Below, piece after piece: positions 1 through 55,987 of a stretch of 64,000 nt of DNA; within the stretch, counting starts at the first letter, position 1; each line of letters opens with the position of its first letter. The translations under genes were made by a program, and so were the position numbers. The DNA comes from Escherichia coli (GTDB lineage: Bacteria; Pseudomonadota; Gammaproteobacteria; Enterobacterales; Enterobacteriaceae). Below the pieces are notes generated by a model. It was not told the origin of the DNA. It worked only from the letters and a program-made list of their open reading frames with translations, and made no database searches. Where the stretch lies: the NCBI RefSeq assembly GCF_048403405.1, contig NZ_CP183129.1; one strand, written 5' to 3'.

Positions 1-920
1 TGTACGCATCTTTGATCCTCGCTGAGAATGTTTCACGCCGGGAATAGGCTCTCGCTCAGGCGGGATGGTCCACATCGACGTGTCGAAATCTATCTCCGAC
101 CAGCGAGCAAAACGCAGCTCACTGGATCGAATAAAGATAAGCAGAGTAAGTTCAGTTGCCCAGCGGGTTAGTGGCCTGCCGGTGTATTCATCGATTTTCT
201 GGAGTAATTCCGGGATACGCTTTAACTCCAGCGCCGGACGATGCTGTCGATTACTGGAAGCAACCGCCCCCGCCATCTCTTGCGCCGGATTGTAATCAAT
301 TAACCCGCTTTGCACTGCATAACGCATGATGGCCGTAGTGCGCTGTTGAAGGCGGGAAGCCACTTCAAGACGTCCGGACTTCTCCACGGCTTTAATAGGA
401 ATTAACAGATCGCGGGTGCCTAGTTCAGCAATGTTGCGAGTACCAATTGCCGGGAAGATATTCTCCTCCAAGCTCTTTTTAGACGATTAGCATGATATTC
501 CGACCATTTTTGGTTGGTCACGAGCCACTATTTGGCAACCTTCTCGAAAGTAATAATCTCTTTCGCCTGCTCTTCTTTCACAGCACGTTTATGCTCACGA
601 GGATCGATACCAGCAGCTACCAGCTTTCTGGCCTCTTCCCTTTTCTTCCGCGCATCCGCCAGCGAAACATCCGGGTAAACGCCGAACGCCATCAAATGTT
701 GTTTACCACCAGAACGGAAACGAAATCACCAATACTTTGAACCGCCAGGTTTTACAAGTAAAGACATGCCGTCGCCGTCAACAAGTGAATACTCTTTCTC
801 CTCTGACTTCACAGAACGAACTTTAGTATCCGTTAGGGCAATAATGGTCTTCCTTCCATTGGTATCTCGTGAGTATACAAGCAATATCGAATCGGCAAAT
901 ATGCTTATTAGTATACTCAC
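1..920 (-). pseudogene. intB: Degraded P4-type (tyrosine) integrase adjacent to leuX; runs off the left window edge
   Basis: Minus-strand translation gives ALTDTKVRSVKSEEKEYSLVDGDGMSLLVKPGGSKYW, then in-frame TGA (726-728), FRFRSGGKQHLMAFGVYPDVSLADARKKREEARKL..FEKVAK, in-frame TAG (528-530), then a frame change in a T-run near 474-481, after which NIFPAIGTRNIAELGTRDLLIPIKAVEKSGRLEV continues in another frame to position 1. Integrase-like throughout but not one intact ORF. Confidence 0.75.
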
Positions 921-1042
921 AAGCCTGTTGATGTGGGTTGAGTCAGGTTGACTTCAGTTGAGGAGAAAAGCTGGAAAAGCCTTGCGTGGTGCGGATTTCA
1001 GGCATAAAAAAAGACCTCAGTTGAGGTCTATTTACATACTTT

Positions 1043-1127
1043 TGGTGCCGAAGGCCGGACTCGAACCGGCACGTATTTCTACGGTTGATTTTGAATCAAC
1101 TGCGTCTACCGATTTCGCCACTTCGGC
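1043..1127 (-). tRNA. leuX: tRNA-Leu (anticodon CAA)
   Basis: Reverse complement reads GCCGAAGTGGCGAAATCGGTAGACGCAGTTGATTCAAAATCAACCGTAGAAATACGTGCCGGTTCGAGTCCGGCCTTCGGCACCA: long variable arm, CAA anticodon loop, T-loop GGTTCGAGTCC, encoded CCA end. Confidence 0.95.
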
Positions 1128-1322
1128 ACTGAAGAGGTATGCGGAAAACGTTGTGGATTATACCTGTCGCACGCCACCATGCAAGCGCCAGCTTGCTCGC
1201 ACCTCGCTAAGTGCTGAAATTTTCAGCATTGCATACAGCGATGTGTAACCTTTGTCACACTCCAGGCACCCCGCCCTGCCATGCTCTACACTTCCCAGAC
1301 AACACCAGAGAAGGACCAAAAA

Positions 1323-2342
1323 ATGTCGATGATAAAAAGCTACGCCGCAAAAGAGGCTGGCGGCGAACTGGAACTTTATGAGTACGATCCCGGTGAACTG
1401 AAGCCACAAGATGTTGAAGTGCAGGTGGATTACTGCGGGATCTGCCATTCCGATCTGTCGATGATCGACAACGAATGGGGATTTTCACAGTATCCGCTGG
1501 TTGCCGGGCATGAGGTGATTGGGCGCGTGGTGGCACTCGGGAGCGCCGCGCAGGATAAAGGTTTGCAGGTCGGTCAGCGTGTCGGGATTGGCTGGACGGC
1601 GCGTAGCTGTGGTCACTGCGATGCCTGTATTAGCGGTAATCAGATCAACTGCGAGCAAGGCGCGGTGCCAACAATTATGAATCGCGGCGGCTTTGCCAAG
1701 AAGTTGCGTGCGGACTGGCAATGGGTGATCCCACTGCCAGAAAATATTGATATCGAGTCCGCCGGGCCGCTGTTGTGCGGCGGTATCACGGTCTTTAAAC
1801 CACTGTTGATGCACCATATCACTGCTACCAGCCGCGTTGGGGTAATTGGTATTGGCGGGCTGGGGCATATCGCTATAAAACTTCTGCACGCAATGGGATG
1901 CGAGGTGACAGCCTTTAGTTCAAATCCGGCGAAAGAGCAGGAAGTACTGGCGATGGGTGCCGATAAAGTGGTGAATAGCCGCGATCCACAGGCACTGAAA
2001 ACTCTGGCGGGGCAGTTTGATCTCATTATCAATACTGTGAACGTCAGCCTCGACTGGCAGCCTTATTTTGAGGCGCTGACGTATGGCGGTAATTTCCACA
2101 CCGTCGGTGCGGTTCTCACGCCGTTGCCGGTTCCGGCCTTTACGCTGATTGCGGGCGATCGCAGTGTCTCTGGCTCTGCTACCGGTACACCTTATGAGTT
2201 GCGTAAGCTGATGCGCTTTGCCGCCCGCAGCAAGGTTGCGCCGACTACCGAACTGTTCCCGATGTCGAAAATTAACGACGCCATCCAGCATGTGCGCGAC
2301 GGTAAGGCGCGTTACCGCGTGGTGTTGAAAGCCGATTTTTGA
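1323..2342 (+). CDS. ahr: NADPH-dependent aldehyde reductase, Zn-dependent alcohol dehydrogenase family
   Basis: ORF 1281-2342; start set at [11 protein letters not shown] (339 aa). Zn-ADH motifs GHEVIGRVV and CGHCDAC, and GIGGLGH dinucleotide fold. Confidence 0.9.
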
Positions 2343-2345
2343 AAA

Positions 2346-2909
2346 TCATTCGCAGCGCTGATCTGAGGCGCTGCCCTCTTTCGCACATATTCTGTTTTGT
2401 CGTATCGCCAGCACAGCCTGCCGACATTGTTCGGTGACATTGGCAATATCATGGTTGATATCAATGCGCACAATATCCTGCTCATCTTCTTGTGGACGCT
2501 CCAGTGCCTCAAACTGACTTTTTAGTAACGCTACCGGCATAAAATGCCCAGCCCGACGCTGCATTCGCGCGAGAATAGTTTCATAGTCGCCATCTAACCA
2601 GAGGAAATGAACATGGGGGCTACCCTTGCGTAAAATATCACGATACTGTTTTTTTAATGATGAACAGACAATAAATCCTGTTTCATTCTTTTTATAAAGA
2701 CTGTATGAAGCATCATTTAAGCGTTCCAGCCAGGGAAGTCGATCTTCATCAGATAATGGAATACCCTGCGACATTTTATCTATATTTTTGGCTGGATGAA
2801 GATCGTCACCATCAATAAATTTAGCAGATAATAACGCGGCAACCTTGCTACCAATTAATGTTTTACCACTCCCTGAAACGCCCATCAAAATAAAGCTTTC
2901 ACCCGCCAT
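2346..2909 (-). CDS. idnK: Gluconate kinase (thermosensitive, GntII system)
   Basis: 187-aa ORF with P-loop GVSGSGKT near the N-terminus; divergent from idnD. Confidence 0.9.
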   Translation of the reverse strand: MAGESFILMGVSGSGKTLIGSKVAALLSAKFIDGDDLHPAKNIDKMSQGIPLSDEDRLPWLERLNDASYSLYKKNETGFIVCSSLKKQYRDILRKGSPHVHFLWLDGDYETILARMQRRAGHFMPVALLKSQFEALERPQEDEQDIVRIDINHDIANVTEQCRQAVLAIRQNRICAKEGSASDQRCE

Positions 2910-3010
2910 TTAAAATCTCCTGAATCATCTTACCTGCTGTGATACTACGCCTGGTGGCATAATAATTTCACGTTTTTTTATTTCTGCTGATAAGAATTAC
3001 AAGGCACATC

Positions 3011-3026
3011 ACGTTATGCGTAACAT
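3011..3026. promoter_or_regulatory. Candidate GntR/IdnR operator in the idnK-idnD divergent promoter region
   Basis: ACGTTATGCGTAACAT is a near-perfect 16-bp palindrome resembling the ATGTTAC-N2-GTAACAT operator class of GntR/IdnR (LacI family). Confidence 0.4.
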
Positions 3027-3125
3027 AGTAATGTAACAATTTTCTAACGTGATCTTCATCACAAATAATGACAATTAAAACCGCTTAAATGCTTCCGAGG
3101 TGTCTACCTGACCAGTGAGAAATTT

Positions 3126-4157
3126 ATGCAAGTGAAAACACAGTCCTGCGTTGTTGCAGGCAAGAAAACTGTTGCCGTTACCGAGCAGACGATAGATTGG
3201 AATAATAATGGAACATTAGTACAAATAACCCGAGGTGGAATTTGCGGTTCCGATTTACATTATTATCAGGAAGGAAAAGTAGGTAATTTCATGATAAAGG
3301 CACCGATGGTGTTAGGTCATGAAGTTATCGGTAAAGTTATTCATAGCGACTCATCAGAATTACATGAAGGGCAAACGGTAGCCATTAATCCGTCTAAACC
3401 GTGCGGTCACTGCAAATACTGCATTGAACATAACGAGAATCAGTGTACAGATATGCGTTTTTTTGGCAGTGCCATGTATTTCCCTCATGTTGATGGTGGT
3501 TTTACCCGTTATAAAATGGTCGAAACGTCGCAATGTGTCCCTTATCCGGCCAAAGCTGACGAAAAGGTTATGGCTTTTGCCGAACCTTTAGCCGTCGCGA
3601 TTCATGCCGCACATCAGGCCGGCGAGTTACAGGGCAAGCGAGTATTTATTTCTGGTGTTGGGCCCATTGGCTGCCTGATTGTCAGTGCTGTGAAAACACT
3701 GGGGGCCGCGGAAATTGTCTGTGCCGATGTGAGTCCCCGTTCCCTTTCGCTGGGCAAAGAGATGGGGGCGGAGGTGCTCGTAAACCCACAAAACGACGAC
3801 ATGGATCACTGGAAAGCGGAAAAAGGCTATTTCGATGTCAGCTTTGAAGTGTCCGGTCATCCTTCATCAGTGAATACCTGTCTGGAGGTCACTCGTGCAC
3901 GCGGCGTAATGGTGCAGGTAGGTATGGGAGGCGCGATGGCAGAATTCCCAATGATGACATTGATTGGTAAGGAGATTTCACTCAAAGGCTCTTTCCGTTT
4001 TACCAGCGAATTTAATACCGCAGTGTCATGGCTGGCGAATGGCGTTATCAATCCACTGCCTTTACTGAGTGCTGAATATCCCTTCACTGACCTGGAAGAG
4101 GCGCTACGTTTCGCCGGTGATAAAACCCAGGCAGCAAAAGTCCAGCTTGTTTTCTAA
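3126..4157 (+). CDS. idnD: L-idonate 5-dehydrogenase (Zn-dependent dehydrogenase)
   Basis: 343-aa ORF; GICGSDLHYY and GHEVIGKV Zn-ADH motifs; first gene of idnDOTR. Confidence 0.9.
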   Translation: MQVKTQSCVVAGKKTVAVTEQTIDWNNNGTLVQITRGGICGSDLHYYQEGKVGNFMIKAPMVLGHEVIGKVIHSDSSELHEGQTVAINPSKPCGHCKYCIEHNENQCTDMRFFGSAMYFPHVDGGFTRYKMVETSQCVPYPAKADEKVMAFAEPLAVAIHAAHQAGELQGKRVFISGVGPIGCLIVSAVKTLGAAEIVCADVSPRSLSLGKEMGAEVLVNPQNDDMDHWKAEKGYFDVSFEVSGHPSSVNTCLEVTRARGVMVQVGMGGAMAEFPMMTLIGKEISLKGSFRFTSEFNTAVSWLANGVINPLPLLSAEYPFTDLEEALRFAGDKTQAAKVQLVF

Positions 4158-4180
4158 GAGATAAATAAAGGAATAATACA

Positions 4181-4945
4181 ATGAACGATCTATTTTCACT
4201 GGCAGGAAAAAATATCTTGATTACCGGTTCAGCACAGGGCATTGGCTTTTTACTGGCAACCGGCCTGGGTAAATATGGCGCACAAATAATTATTAATGAT
4301 ATTACTGCCGAACGCGCAGAACTTGCTGTAGAAAAACTCCACCAGGAGGGTATTCAGGCCGTTGCCGCACCTTTTAATGTTACTCATAAACATGAAATTG
4401 ATGCCGCCGTTGAACATATCGAAAAGAACATCGGCCCCATTGATGTGCTGGTGAATAACGCCGGTATCCAGCGCCGTCATCCTTTTACTGAGTTCCCTGA
4501 ACAAGAGTGGAATGATGTGATCGCAGTAAACCAGACCGCCGTGTTCCTGGTATCGCAAGCGGTAACTCGTCACATGGTTGAACGCAAGGCAGGTAAAGTT
4601 ATTAATATTTGCTCGATGCAAAGCGAACTGGGACGTGACACCATCACCCCTTATGCCGCATCGAAAGGGGCGGTAAAAATGCTCACCCGCGGCATGTGCG
4701 TCGAGCTGGCGCGCCACAATATTCAGGTCAACGGTATTGCGCCGGGCTATTTCAAAACAGAAATGACTAAAGCACTGGTTGAGGACGAAGCCTTCACCGC
4801 CTGGTTGTGCAAACGGACCCCCGCCGCACGCTGGGGAGATCCGCAGGAACTGATTGGTGCTGCGGTGTTCCTTTCTTCAAAAGCCTCTGATTTCGTAAAC
4901 GGCCACCTGTTGTTTGTTGATGGCGGCATGTTAGTGGCTGTTTAA
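4181..4945 (+). CDS. idnO: 5-keto-D-gluconate 5-reductase (short-chain dehydrogenase/reductase)
   Basis: 254-aa ORF; TGSAQGIG Rossmann motif and YAASKGAV (YxxxK) catalytic motif. Confidence 0.9.
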   Translation: MNDLFSLAGKNILITGSAQGIGFLLATGLGKYGAQIIINDITAERAELAVEKLHQEGIQAVAAPFNVTHKHEIDAAVEHIEKNIGPIDVLVNNAGIQRRHPFTEFPEQEWNDVIAVNQTAVFLVSQAVTRHMVERKAGKVINICSMQSELGRDTITPYAASKGAVKMLTRGMCVELARHNIQVNGIAPGYFKTEMTKALVEDEAFTAWLCKRTPAARWGDPQELIGAAVFLSSKASDFVNGHLLFVDGGMLVAV

Positions 4946-5009
4946 CAGCCACCACCCTACGTGCAGCGCGAAAGCGCTGCTTTTCTGGCACTAATAAGAG
5001 ATAAAGACT

Positions 5010-6329
5010 ATGCCATTAATCATTATTGCGGCAGGCGTCGCGCTGCTTCTTATCCTGATGATCGGCTTTAAAGTTAACGGCTTTATTGCCCTCGTTCTGG
5101 TAGCTGCCGTCGTCGGATTTGCCGAAGGGATGGATGCACAGGCCGTCCTGCACTCTATACAAAATGGTATCGGCAGCACGCTCGGCGGGCTGGCAATGAT
5201 CCTCGGTTTCGGGGCCATGTTAGGCAAGCTGATTTCTGATACGGGCGCGGCACAACGTATCGCCACTACGCTGATTGCTACTTTTGGTAAAAAACGCGTG
5301 CAATGGGCGCTAGTGATCACCGGTCTGGTTGTGGGCCTCGCCATGTTTTTTGAAGTGGGTTTTGTCCTGCTGTTGCCGTTGGTATTTACCATCGTGGCAT
5401 CATCTGGATTACCCCTGTTGTATGTTGGCGTACCGATGGTAGCAGCGCTCTCTGTAACCCACTGTTTTCTGCCGCCACATCCAGGGCCTACTGCCATCGC
5501 GACTATCTTTGAGGCTAATCTCGGAACGACTTTACTGTATGGATTTATCATTACCATTCCGACAGTTATTGTCGCAGGACCGCTGTTTTCTAAACTGCTA
5601 ACTCGCTTTGAGAAAGCACCACCGGAAGGCTTATTTAATCCTCATCTGTTTAGCGAAGAGGAGATGCCCTCCTTCTGGAACAGTATTTTCGCTGCCGTGA
5701 TCCCGGTCATCCTGATGGCTATCGCCGCCGTTTGTGAAATTACGTTACCGAAAACTAACGCCGTGCGCCTCTTCTTTGAATTTGTCGGTAACCCTGCCGT
5801 TGCGCTGTTTATTGCCATTGTTATTGCGATTTTCACACTGGGCCGACGTAATGGACGCACCATCGAGCAAATCATGGATATCATTGGGGATTCTATAGGC
5901 GCTATCGCGATGATTGTGTTTATTATCGCTGGCGGCGGCGCGTTTAAGCAGGTATTAGTAGATAGCGGTGTCGGGCAGTATATTTCACACTTAATGACCG
6001 GAACTACACTTTCGCCGTTATTGATGTGCTGGACTGTTGCGGCGCTGTTGCGTATCGCTCTGGGCTCTGCCACCGTCGCGGCCATTACCACCGCGGGTGT
6101 GGTGTTGCCGATTATCAACGTTACCCATACCGATCCCGCTTTAATGGTACTGGCAACCGGTGCGGGCAGCGTGATCGCATCACACGTAAACGACCCTGGC
6201 TTCTGGCTATTTAAAGGGTATTTTAATCTGACGGTTGGTGAAACGTTGCGTACCTGGACGGTGATGGAAACCCTTATTTCTATTATGGGTTTGCTGGGCG
6301 TGTTAGCCATTAACGCCGTATTGCACTGA
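5010..6329 (+). CDS. idnT: L-idonate/5-ketogluconate/gluconate transporter (GntP family permease)
   Basis: 439-aa highly hydrophobic ORF; position in the idn operon. Confidence 0.9.
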   Translation: MPLIIIAAGVALLLILMIGFKVNGFIALVLVAAVVGFAEGMDAQAVLHSIQNGIGSTLGGLAMILGFGAMLGKLISDTGAAQRIATTLIATFGKKRVQWALVITGLVVGLAMFFEVGFVLLLPLVFTIVASSGLPLLYVGVPMVAALSVTHCFLPPHPGPTAIATIFEANLGTTLLYGFIITIPTVIVAGPLFSKLLTRFEKAPPEGLFNPHLFSEEEMPSFWNSIFAAVIPVILMAIAAVCEITLPKTNAVRLFFEFVGNPAVALFIAIVIAIFTLGRRNGRTIEQIMDIIGDSIGAIAMIVFIIAGGGAFKQVLVDSGVGQYISHLMTGTTLSPLLMCWTVAALLRIALGSATVAAITTAGVVLPIINVTHTDPALMVLATGAGSVIASHVNDPGFWLFKGYFNLTVGETLRTWTVMETLISIMGLLGVLAINAVLH

Positions 6330-6394
6330 AAGAATAAAATATTGTGATGTAGTTTCGGGGGAAGATTGAAGATTCCCCGACGTTGGGAGAAGTT

Positions 6395-7393
6395 ATGCGC
6401 AATCACAGAATTTCTTTACAGGATATCGCTACGCTGGCTGGCGTAACAAAAATGACCGTGAGTCGTTATATCCGCTCGCCGAAAAAGGTGGCAAAGGAAA
6501 CAGGCGAGCGCATCGCCAAAATTATGGAAGAGATCAATTATATCCCTAATCGCGCTCCCGGCATGTTGTTGAATGCACAAAGTTATACCCTCGGTATCTT
6601 GATTCCGTCATTTCAAAATCAACTCTTCGCTGACATTCTCGCGGGAATAGAATCCGTCACCTCTGAGCATAATTATCAGACCCTTATTGCTAATTACAAT
6701 TACGATCGCGATTCCGAAGAAGAGTCGGTGATTAACCTGCTCTCTTATAACATTGACGGGATTATACTTTCGGAAAAATATCACACCATCAGGACGGTGA
6801 AATTTCTGCGTTCAGCCACCATTCCGGTCGTGGAATTGATGGATGTACAGGGAGAACGGCTGGATATGGAGGTCGGTTTTGATAATCGGCAGGCCGCTTT
6901 TGACATGGTGTGTACCATGCTGGAGAAGCGAGTCAGGCACAAAATTCTGTATCTCGGTTCCAAAGATGACACCCGCGATGAACAGCGTTATCAGGGGTAT
7001 TGCGATGCGATGATGCTGCATAATCTTTCCCCATTACGCATGAATCCACGCGCCATCTCATCCATTCATTTAGGAATGCAGTTAATGCGTGATGCCCTTA
7101 GCGCAAACCCGGATTTAGACGGTGTATTTTGCACCAATGACGATATTGCGATGGGTGCGCTTCTGCTGTGCCGCGAGCGAAACCTCGCCGTGCCAGAACA
7201 AATTTCCATTGCGGGTTTTCATGGGCTGGAGATTGGCAGGCAAATGATCCCAAGCCTCGCCAGCGTAATTACTCCCCGTTTTGATATTGGTCGGATGGCC
7301 GCCCAAATGTTGCTGAGCAAAATTAAGAATAACGATCACAACCACAACACTGTTGACCTCGGGTATCAGATTTATCACGGTAACACGCTTTAG
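6395..7393 (+). CDS. idnR: LacI-family transcriptional regulator of the idn operon
   Basis: ORF 6383-7393; start chosen at MRNHR (332 aa). N-terminal [24 protein letters not shown]. Confidence 0.85.
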
Positions 7394-7470
7394 GTTATTT
7401 TCTCTGCATTACACATATTCTCTTTGCCGGACGTTGCCTATACTCCAGGCAGGAAACTGGAGGAAATCTC

Positions 7471-29598: not shown

Positions 29599-29738
29599 AA
29601 GGAGTCCCTCCGCACTGTCTGAAACAGTACAGAAATGTCTTCAGGCGTGGCGAAGCCTTACCTGAAGGTAATAAAGCTGAGCTGGGACGTTAAAACGTCA
29701 CGGCCTTACGCATCCGGTAACGCCGTGAAAAGACGGGC

Positions 29739-29792
29739 TTACCGGAAAAGTTTTAATCTCCGTCGAGGGAGAGGCGTGGGATCAGGTTCCAT
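29739..29792 (-). CDS. mgtL: mgtA leader peptide (proline-rich)
   Basis: 17-codon [20 protein letters not shown] in the leader upstream of mgtA. Confidence 0.8.
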
Positions 29793-29976
29793 ATAACCTC
29801 CGGTAAGTGAAAAAAGCGCCGCAAATAATAAGGAGAATCCAATAATATTCGTAGCATCTATGGCGATATAATACCTGCTGGCAACTAAACCAACGATAAA
29901 CCAGACTTTACCCATTGCTGAATGCACGGGTAAAGTTAGGCTCAAATAATTAAACAACACGTTACGGGACAACAGG

Positions 29977-46144: not shown

Positions 46145-46189
46145 AGTTTCCCCCGGTGAAAAGCGTGCGCCCGGTAAGCCAGATAAGAC

Positions 46190-46285
46190 ACAACAGCGTC
46201 GCATCAGGCATCTCGCACAATCGCCGGATGCGGCATAAACACCTTATCCGGCGGCGTACAAGTCGGCATCAGGCATTGATGCCCC
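46190..46285. repeat. REP elements between ytfR and ytfQ
   Basis: CGCCGGATGCGGCATAAACACCTTATCCGGCGGCGTACA and CGGCATCAGGCATTGATGCC. Confidence 0.8.
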
Positions 46286-55810: not shown

Positions 55811-55987
55811 AGTTTTTCATTTATCAGCAGTCTGAATTTTAACCCTCTGGCGGCTTTACAGTACCTTACGCTATACTAGCCACTGAAAATGCCGGTTCAC
55901 TTTCTTCGAATCGGCTTTCAATGTGTATTTCACACAAATTAATCAACTTCCCCTTCCGAGGATCTGGCCTGAAAGGTCGGATAAGAT

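Follow-up and report, generated by a model that had tools for sequence, protein, structure and literature searches.

Introduction

Overlapping transcripts of convergent genes have been catalogued in Escherichia coli MG1655 with ExcludonFinder, which lists 165 convergent excludons including the pair idnK-ahr (Sanmartin et al., NAR 2025, PMC12288877). The listing (Table 1 of that study) covers pairs called in at least 50% of 58 MG1655 RNA-seq sets, and excludon pairs were reported to have shorter spacers than other pairs, with a mean excludon spacer of 95 nt (PMC12288877). A related class is that of the overlapping bidirectional terminators (Ju et al. 2019, as presented by Wang et al. 2022, bioRxiv 10.1101/2022.10.23.513370), which are described as Rho-independent and located between gene boundaries. 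Termination by Rho also frequently concerns antisense transcription, as 51.5% of the 1078 Rho regions reported by Adams et al. (eLife 2021, PMC7815308) are antisense to genes. The idn genes have already been reported to be accessory in E. coli (PMC8545132).

Here the convergent junction of ahr and idnK was analyzed in a window of 64,000 nucleotides from E. coli (contig NZ_CP183129.1). Several features of this junction are already known, namely the 3-bp spacing in the K-12 annotation, the catalogued overlap and the Rho-sensitive ahr read-through in a public table. The modest added value of the present work is an evolutionary reading of the 3-bp gap, the finding itself being ordinary.

Results

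Layout of the junction

The + strand ORF 1281/1323..2342 closes with the TGA at 2340-2342 and corresponds to ahr (1323-2342, + strand, annotated start at 1323), encoding a NADPH-dependent aldehyde reductase of 339 aa. The - strand ORF 2909..2346 corresponds to idnK (2346-2909), encoding a gluconokinase of 187 aa, and ends in a TGA at 2348-2346 that reads TCA on the + strand. These assignments were based on the ORFs and on the RefSeq annotation of a genome 100% identical over 1200-3200, in which ahr and idnK are likewise annotated with a 3-bp gap, and agreed with NCBIfam profile matches to the Ahr equivalog (553.6 bits against a cut-off of 470) and to gluconokinase PRK09825 (394.8 bits against a cut-off of 304). 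The spacer between the two stop codons is AAA (2343-2345), the + strand reading GATTTT TGA AAA TCA TTC over 2334-2351 and GCC GAT TTT TGA AAA TCA TTC GCA GCG C over 2328-2358. The same 3-bp spacer is found in K-12 MG1655 (idnK 4494623-4495186, ahr 4495190-4496209), whose sequence equals that of the window between positions -95 and +138 relative to the ahr stop; K-12 coordinates (x) were converted to window positions as 2342 + (4495190 - x). The original prediction that the ahr stop (2340-2342) and the idnK stop (2346-2348, - strand) lie 3 bp apart thus agrees with the sequence, the identical RefSeq genome and K-12. Inverted-repeat and fold analysis further revealed an A/T palindrome, GATTTT-TG-AAAATC (2334-2347), lying across both stop codons.

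The ahr-idnK gap is unusually small for its neighbourhood, the spacers of the 10 convergent pairs in the 50 kb matching window positions 1-50000 being 78, 32, 82, 44, 205, 57, 45, 55, 118 and 3 bp. It is also fixed within E. coli: the junction aligned without indels in all 2050 genomes covering it, and the 3-bp gap is also annotated in the most divergent E. coli alleles sampled. Within Escherichia, 45 nt around the junction are invariant despite several synonymous differences in the flanking ahr codons.

Transcript overlap and Rho-sensitive read-through

With a spacer of 3 bp each mRNA must run into the opposing gene, and the overlap of the convergent transcripts into the opposite genes, which had been proposed from the sequence, is in accord with both the published excludome (PMC12288877) and a published Rho region (PMC7815308). 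The genes are convergent, as in an excludon, and the transcript overlap is taken from the published listing; with a 3-bp spacer the ExcludonFinder call follows almost automatically once reads cover both genes. The Rho termination region 4495079(-) is classed as antisense to idnK (Adams et al., PMC7815308, Supplementary file 2) and maps to about position 2453 of the window on the ahr strand, approximately 111 nt past the ahr stop. Upstream/downstream reads are 55/53 without bicyclomycin (BCM) and 68/181 with it, giving a Rho score of 2.76 (p 3.2e-5), so that by this published table read-through increases under Rho inhibition. The call was made in 800-nt windows at low read counts and the downstream window reaches the promoter and 5' end of idnD, from which part of the bicyclomycin effect could stem.

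The read-through segment that leads from the end of the hairpin described below to the Rho region (2375-2453, + strand) is untranslated and antisense to idnK. The ~75 nt that follow the ahr stop (2343-2417, + strand) contain more C than G; the bias is modest, C:G being 16:10 in the first 50-nt window, 17:10 in the second and about 1:1 thereafter.

The curated Term-seq lists of PMC7815308 contain no 3' end for ahr or idnK, which leaves a role of the hairpin in 3'-end formation without direct support. There was also no idnK/ahr entry in the supplements of the SMRT-Cappable-seq (PMC6131387) and nanopore direct-RNA (PMC11347139) studies, and the names idnK, ahr and yjgB were absent from the 10 supplementary files of the p19 dsRNA-capture study (PMC7373196), which low expression could explain, both genes having low read counts in LB. 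A full-text literature search for idnK with terminator, antisense or yjgB returned only the ExcludonFinder paper as relevant.

A GC-rich hairpin at the end of idnK

A GC-rich inverted repeat (GCAGCGC-N9-GCGCTGC, 2352-2374), predicted to fold as GCAGCGC(T)-loop-(G)GCGCTGC, starts 10 nt past the ahr stop and lies within idnK codons 179-186, among the last 10 codons of the gene. The predicted RNA fold has an energy of -14.9 kcal/mol on the + (ahr) strand, with 8 pairs including one G-U and a loop of 7 nt, and of -13.3 kcal/mol on the - (idnK) strand, with a loop of 9 nt. With z-scores of -1.4 to -2.15 against shuffles (-2.15 for the ahr strand and -1.63 for the idnK strand), the E. coli hairpin exceeds shuffled sequence by a modest margin only. 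No second copy occurs in the window even with 3 mismatches allowed, and a REP-type repeated element was rejected on this basis. Rfam, searched over the whole window at gathering thresholds, gave no RNA family at the junction, the nearest match being tRNA leuX.

A consensus terminator and promoter scan of 1000-3400 found nothing at the ahr-idnK junction on either strand. On the + strand the hairpin has a canonical stem (at least 5 GC-rich bp with a loop of 3-8 nt), whereas the 9-nt loop of the - strand falls outside this range. A U-tract of at least 5 U in 8 nt, beginning 0-2 nt after the stem, does not accompany the hairpin: the + strand tail CCCTCTTT (CCCUCUUU when given in fuller form) has 4 T/U in 8, and the - strand reaches 5/8 U only from offset 2, where the loop is out of range. 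On the idnK strand the A/T palindrome supplies a UUUU run 6 nt past the hairpin. As in an overlapping bidirectional terminator, the hairpin lies in the region common to both convergent transcripts. The original prediction had argued that the stop codons leave no room for a terminator on either strand; the AAA spacer is indeed too small, but a conserved GC hairpin adjoins it within idnK.

Conservation of the hairpin in related genera

An IdnK scan using one genome per species yielded 20 loci. Escherichia sp. MOD1-EC7003, 13 Citrobacter loci and Salmonella arizonae had ahr and idnK as adjacent convergent genes, and the Phytobacter and Kosakonia loci encode an IdnK of 174 aa next to other neighbour genes. 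In the Citrobacter freundii group, IdnK has 173 aa and the spacer 30-31 bp (10 loci), the idnK stop preceding a single 10-bp GC hairpin (GCTCAGCCCC-N4-GGGACTGAGC) that makes up essentially the entire spacer. The idnK stop falls in the hairpin loop in both Citrobacter amalonaticus (IdnK of 180 aa, spacer of 24 bp) and S. arizonae (176 aa, 27 bp), and in Escherichia (187 aa, 3 bp) it lies past the entire hairpin.

In a MAFFT alignment the arms of the E. coli hairpin aligned on the CTCAGCGC/GCGCTGAG arms of C. amalonaticus, with an E. coli loop 9 nt shorter. The codons AGC GCC TCA (S-A-S) occur in the same frame in both species and are followed by CTA TGA in C. amalonaticus versus GAT CAG CGC TGC GAA TGA in E. 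coli, and in each of them 48 nt separate codon 173 from the ahr stop. RNAalifold, applied to 16 sequences from three genera (Escherichia, Citrobacter and Salmonella), predicted one common helix of 8 pairs, three of which show compensatory changes on both sides (e.g. CG in 10 sequences and GC in 6). Within this helix 93.8% of cells are paired, compared with 20-40% when partners are slid by 1-3 columns, and the covariation score of 0.244 (0.087 ± 0.024 in shuffles) was attained in 0 of 500 shuffles. The covariation is supportive of a conserved RNA structure, if short of conclusive given the few independent lineages. In Escherichia sp. MOD1-EC7003 the sole stem difference turns the G-U pair into G-C and the tail residue from Q to R. 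On the basis of these alignments the E. coli hairpin is homologous to that occupying the 24-31 bp between ahr and idnK in Citrobacter and S. arizonae. Unlike the helix, the U-runs flanking it are not conserved among genera, which argues against a canonical intrinsic terminator and favours an element consisting of the hairpin only, which would pause polymerases, mark a site of collision or protect the 3' end. The statement that there is no room for a terminator is therefore misleading, as E. coli retains an element that other genera carry between the two genes.

Comparison of IdnK lengths across genera defines an Escherichia-specific C-terminal extension of 14 codons (residues 174-187, ICAKEGSASDQRCE; 2349-2390, - strand). 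This tail appears to have arisen by translation of what was once spacer and hairpin, and the 176 positions of the NCBIfam IdnK profile reach only as far as residue 176, as would be expected of an appended tail.

Presence and absence of the idn genes

Of 5426 complete E. coli genomes, 5284 contain ahr and 2051-2052 contain idnK. The segment idnK-idnD-idnO-idnT-idnR (2343-7418) is missing in about 59% of genomes, its left breakpoint being the first base after the ahr stop, and a 92-bp probe from the idn-less ahr-yjgR spacer was single-copy in 3223/5426 genomes. In idn-less genomes homology extends precisely to the ahr stop, and a 129-bp spacer and yjgR come next. This allele reads TGA|TCTCTTTGCCGG, then 77 bp containing a 9-bp hairpin, then GTTGCCTATACTCC; in idn+ genomes TCTCTTTGCCGG is located 25 bp past idnR (window 7419-7430). 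Citrobacter shows the full order lptFG-yjgR-idnRTOD/idnK/ahr and a short idnR-yjgR spacer containing ATATTCTCTTT, and this synteny together with the spacer match indicates that the idn+ state is ancestral. S. arizonae retains the idn synteny in decaying form. The idn-less state thus results from a clean deletion of 5.08 kb (2343-7418) that begins directly after the ahr stop, together with a 77-bp insertion. The 77-bp insert is single-copy per genome, is restricted to idn-less genomes and had no match in the window or in the outgroup loci, and no convincing microhomology was detected at the deletion breakpoints. Of the features expected of an island, the locus shows variable presence within the species (2052 idn+ and 3223 idn-less of 5426); absence from the syntenic site in related genera, att repeats and integrase flanks were not found. 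The description of the site as the junction of a core gene and the GntII cluster calls for qualification. The site is the exact boundary of the idn presence/absence polymorphism, but Citrobacter has the whole synteny and S. arizonae the ahr-idnK junction, so that the order is ancestral and was not created by insertion; the island junction implied by the description is not supported.

Discussion

Origin of the 3-bp gap and fate of the transcripts

We consider it likely that ahr and idnK form an ordinary, very compact convergent pair, in which the 3-bp gap arose by drift of a reading frame and not by loss of a terminator. The ancestor of Escherichia, Citrobacter and Salmonella would have carried ahr and idnK in convergent orientation around a spacer of ~24-31 bp made up of a single GC-rich hairpin. 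The Escherichia lineage would then have lost the in-frame stop codon within the loop, apparently while the loop became shorter, so that translation of idnK now runs across the entire hairpin as far as a TGA located 3 bp from that of ahr, and IdnK gained 14 residues (187 versus 173 aa). The DNA distance from the conserved IdnK core to ahr would have remained unchanged (48 bp), the end of the frame having moved and the DNA not having been compacted. A near-zero convergent spacer may therefore come about without DNA compaction, by frame extension through a shared hairpin, and in such a case a lack of intergenic room does not mean a lack of a termination element.

At the present-day junction the two mRNAs overlap at their 3' ends. 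Transcription of ahr proceeds beyond the hairpin and continues antisense into idnK, with a Rho termination region ~110 nt past the ahr stop. Based on the collision model of Wang et al. and the processing caveat of Adams et al. (PMC7815308), the hairpin may serve as a pause site or as a structure protecting the 3' end, presumably after trimming, rather than as a canonical intrinsic terminator. In idnK transcripts it would form only when free of ribosome cover, as ribosomes reach the stop 3 nt past the stem; with ribosomes keeping the hairpin unfolded, idnK transcripts may end within the 3' end of ahr, at the weak distal U-run, through Rho or by polymerase collision. Such an overlap could be tolerated because both genes are weakly expressed, and would not be a dedicated regulatory device. 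We found no evidence that the overlap regulates ahr or idnK or has a special function.

Alternative explanations

One alternative account would be that the hairpin is a functionless relic, inherited and now kept by the coding constraint on the IdnK tail, with two-way read-through as noise cleared by Rho. The modest fold z-scores, the lack of listed 3' ends at the hairpin together with the Rho region downstream (PMC7815308) and the decay of idnK and idnD in some lineages (a frameshifted idnK in one C. amalonaticus locus, L020, and a fragmented idnD in the S. arizonae locus L018) are in its favour, but in Citrobacter the helix is intergenic and was nevertheless kept, with compensatory changes, and the G-U to G-C change of MOD1-EC7003, with its Q to R replacement, fits selection on structure more than on the peptide; this account therefore seems rather unlikely. 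It is also unlikely that the pair is a regulatory excludon, in which ahr and idnK would repress each other through polymerase collision or RNase III cleavage of the duplex. The pair belongs to the published convergent excludome (PMC12288877), its overlap is structurally unavoidable, and idn-less genomes provide ahr with a hairpin of its own in the 129-bp spacer so that the 3' context differs between alleles. Against this stand the almost automatic nature of the excludome call at such a spacer, the low LB read counts of both genes, the absence of their names from the p19 dsRNA supplements (PMC7373196, 10 files) and the origin of the 3-bp state in the loss of a stop codon at unchanged DNA spacing, and anticorrelated expression has not been reported for ahr/idnK. 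Mutual repression of this kind would imply that induction of the idonate pathway lowers Ahr, and the reverse. A further proposal, that the hairpin in the idnK end acts as a translation-gated, collision-type bidirectional stop, we regard as very improbable. If it were true, induction and translation of idnK would lead ribosomes to open the hairpin, polymerases would enter ahr and Ahr would be lowered; in the ~59% of E. coli that deleted idn and acquired a separate ahr hairpin, aldehyde reduction would no longer be coupled to idonate/gluconate catabolism, and the idn polymorphism across the species would also be a regulatory polymorphism of a core gene.

Two further explanations concern termination and the origin of the gap. 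That the hairpin (2352-2374) and its U-runs stop both genes without Rho, as a canonical bidirectional intrinsic terminator limiting the overlap to ~35 nt, is suggested by the stem of 7-8 GC-rich pairs, by 5/8 U beginning 2 nt past the stem on the idnK strand, by the CCUCUUUC that follows the stem on the ahr strand and by the UUAUUG that follows the ahr-sense hairpin in the C. freundii group. However, the consensus scan flags neither strand (4 U in 8 on the + strand, loop of 9 nt on the - strand), the helix is conserved among genera but the U-tracts are not, and PMC7815308 lists no Term-seq end at the hairpin and places a bicyclomycin-sensitive region downstream of it. On the idnK strand the hairpin moreover lies in translated sequence, 3 nt before the stop, where ribosomes should hinder its folding, and overall a canonical terminator appears quite improbable. 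The gap could also be the scar of a GntII (idn) island inserted directly after the core gene ahr, as idnK is found in only 2051-2052 of the 5426 complete genomes, homology in the others breaks off precisely at the ahr stop, and the neighbourhood contains the tRNA-Leu gene leuX and an integrase pseudogene. But leuX and the integrase are found beyond the opposite end of ahr, no repeats flank 2343-7418, and the Citrobacter gene order is identical with an idnR-yjgR spacer that matches idn+ E. coli. S. arizonae also has ahr and idnK convergent around a homologous hairpin, and the idn-less allele retains the E. coli-specific TCTCTTTGCCGG of the idnR-yjgR spacer, pointing to an idn+ ancestor. An island-insertion origin is largely refuted by outgroup synteny and was rejected, an insertion scar being extremely improbable. 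The clean idn deletion flush with the ahr stop provides a natural allele pair for testing the expression effects of such overlaps.

Comparison with known systems

Like a canonical intrinsic terminator, the junction has a GC-rich stem of 7-8 bp shortly past the ahr stop, but the ahr strand has no adequate adjoining U-tract, and the idnK strand has too large a loop and a distal U-run; the scan does not call the hairpin. The locus also resembles the overlapping bidirectional terminators, which as described (Ju et al. 2019; Wang et al. 2022) likewise feature a hairpin without canonical U-tracts at convergent genes, and as in the model presented there the hairpin could pause polymerases and position head-on collisions. 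It differs from them in that the hairpin belongs to the idnK reading frame and that bicyclomycin sensitivity is seen for the ahr strand; this sensitivity, in a region 111 nt beyond the ahr stop, would be compatible with some Rho-independent termination at the hairpin. The collision model, as given there, also needs trailing polymerases, whereas ahr and idnK are weakly expressed. Among the Rho regions of Adams et al., 4495079(-) is likewise antisense and is a weak example, its p of 3.2e-5 being near the cut-off of 1e-4. With respect to the convergent excludons of MG1655 (PMC12288877), idnK-ahr is itself a listed pair with RNA-seq-defined overlapping transcripts; mutually exclusive expression, the functional hallmark of excludons, is hypothetical for ahr-idnK. 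Its spacer of 3 nt, compared with the excludon mean of 95 nt, places the overlap in coding sequence and not just in the 3' UTRs.

Presence and absence of the idn segment in E. coli

The idnK-idnR segment (window 2343-7418) was found to be a two-allele polymorphism in E. coli, being present in 2052 of 5426 genomes (idn+) and missing from 3223 of the 5426 (idn-less). In the idn-less allele, the deletion runs from the base directly following the ahr stop codon to a point 25 bp past idnR, and a single-copy 77-bp insert is also present, as seen at the junction in comparison loci L002 and L003 (5141-5272 in each). The insert contains a 9-bp hairpin of its own (TGCCGGGTG-N5-CGCCCGGCA); a source for the insert was sought by comparison with the window and the outgroup loci and was not found. 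Among the matches listed, the DNA identity of ahr to the window (1200-2342) was 95.0-96.7% in idn-less E. coli genomes versus 96.2-100% in idn+ genomes, and the final two ahr codons also distinguished the alleles (GAC TTC versus GAT TTT). This suggests linkage between the ahr allele of a genome and whether that genome carries idn, through either an old polymorphism or recombination.

Features of ahr and the rest of the window

A near-perfect palindrome without a U-tract (CGGTAAGGC/GCGTTACCG, 2300-2317) lies within the 3' end of ahr; on the idnK strand, transcripts reading through would reach this hairpin before any other. At the other end of the gene, the mechanical ORF starts with an ATG at 1281, 14 codons upstream of the annotated start at 1323 (window 1281-1322); the start of the NCBIfam Ahr profile coincides with the annotated one. 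The tRNA-Leu gene leuX (1043-1127, minus strand) is the usual island attachment site, and the integrases and cargo found there differ between strains (L002, L003 and L028-L030). A frameshifted tyrosine-recombinase pseudogene was observed past leuX (window 1-1127). Elsewhere in the window, gathering-level Rfam matches were obtained for Ysr276 (12099-12293, minus; antisense to pepA as judged by position), the Mg riboswitch of the mgtA leader (29692-29807, minus), naRNA4 (46177-46253, minus), STnc450 (55869-55926, plus) and ES239 (60498-60620, minus).

Decay of idn in other lineages

The idn region is decaying in some lineages outside E. coli. One C. amalonaticus genome carries a frameshifted idnK with a stop after 75 codons (L020 3001-3520). 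In S. arizonae (L018 2278-2773), idnD is reduced to fragments between idnK and yjgR, but idnK persists at the locus, as does the 3' end of idnR.
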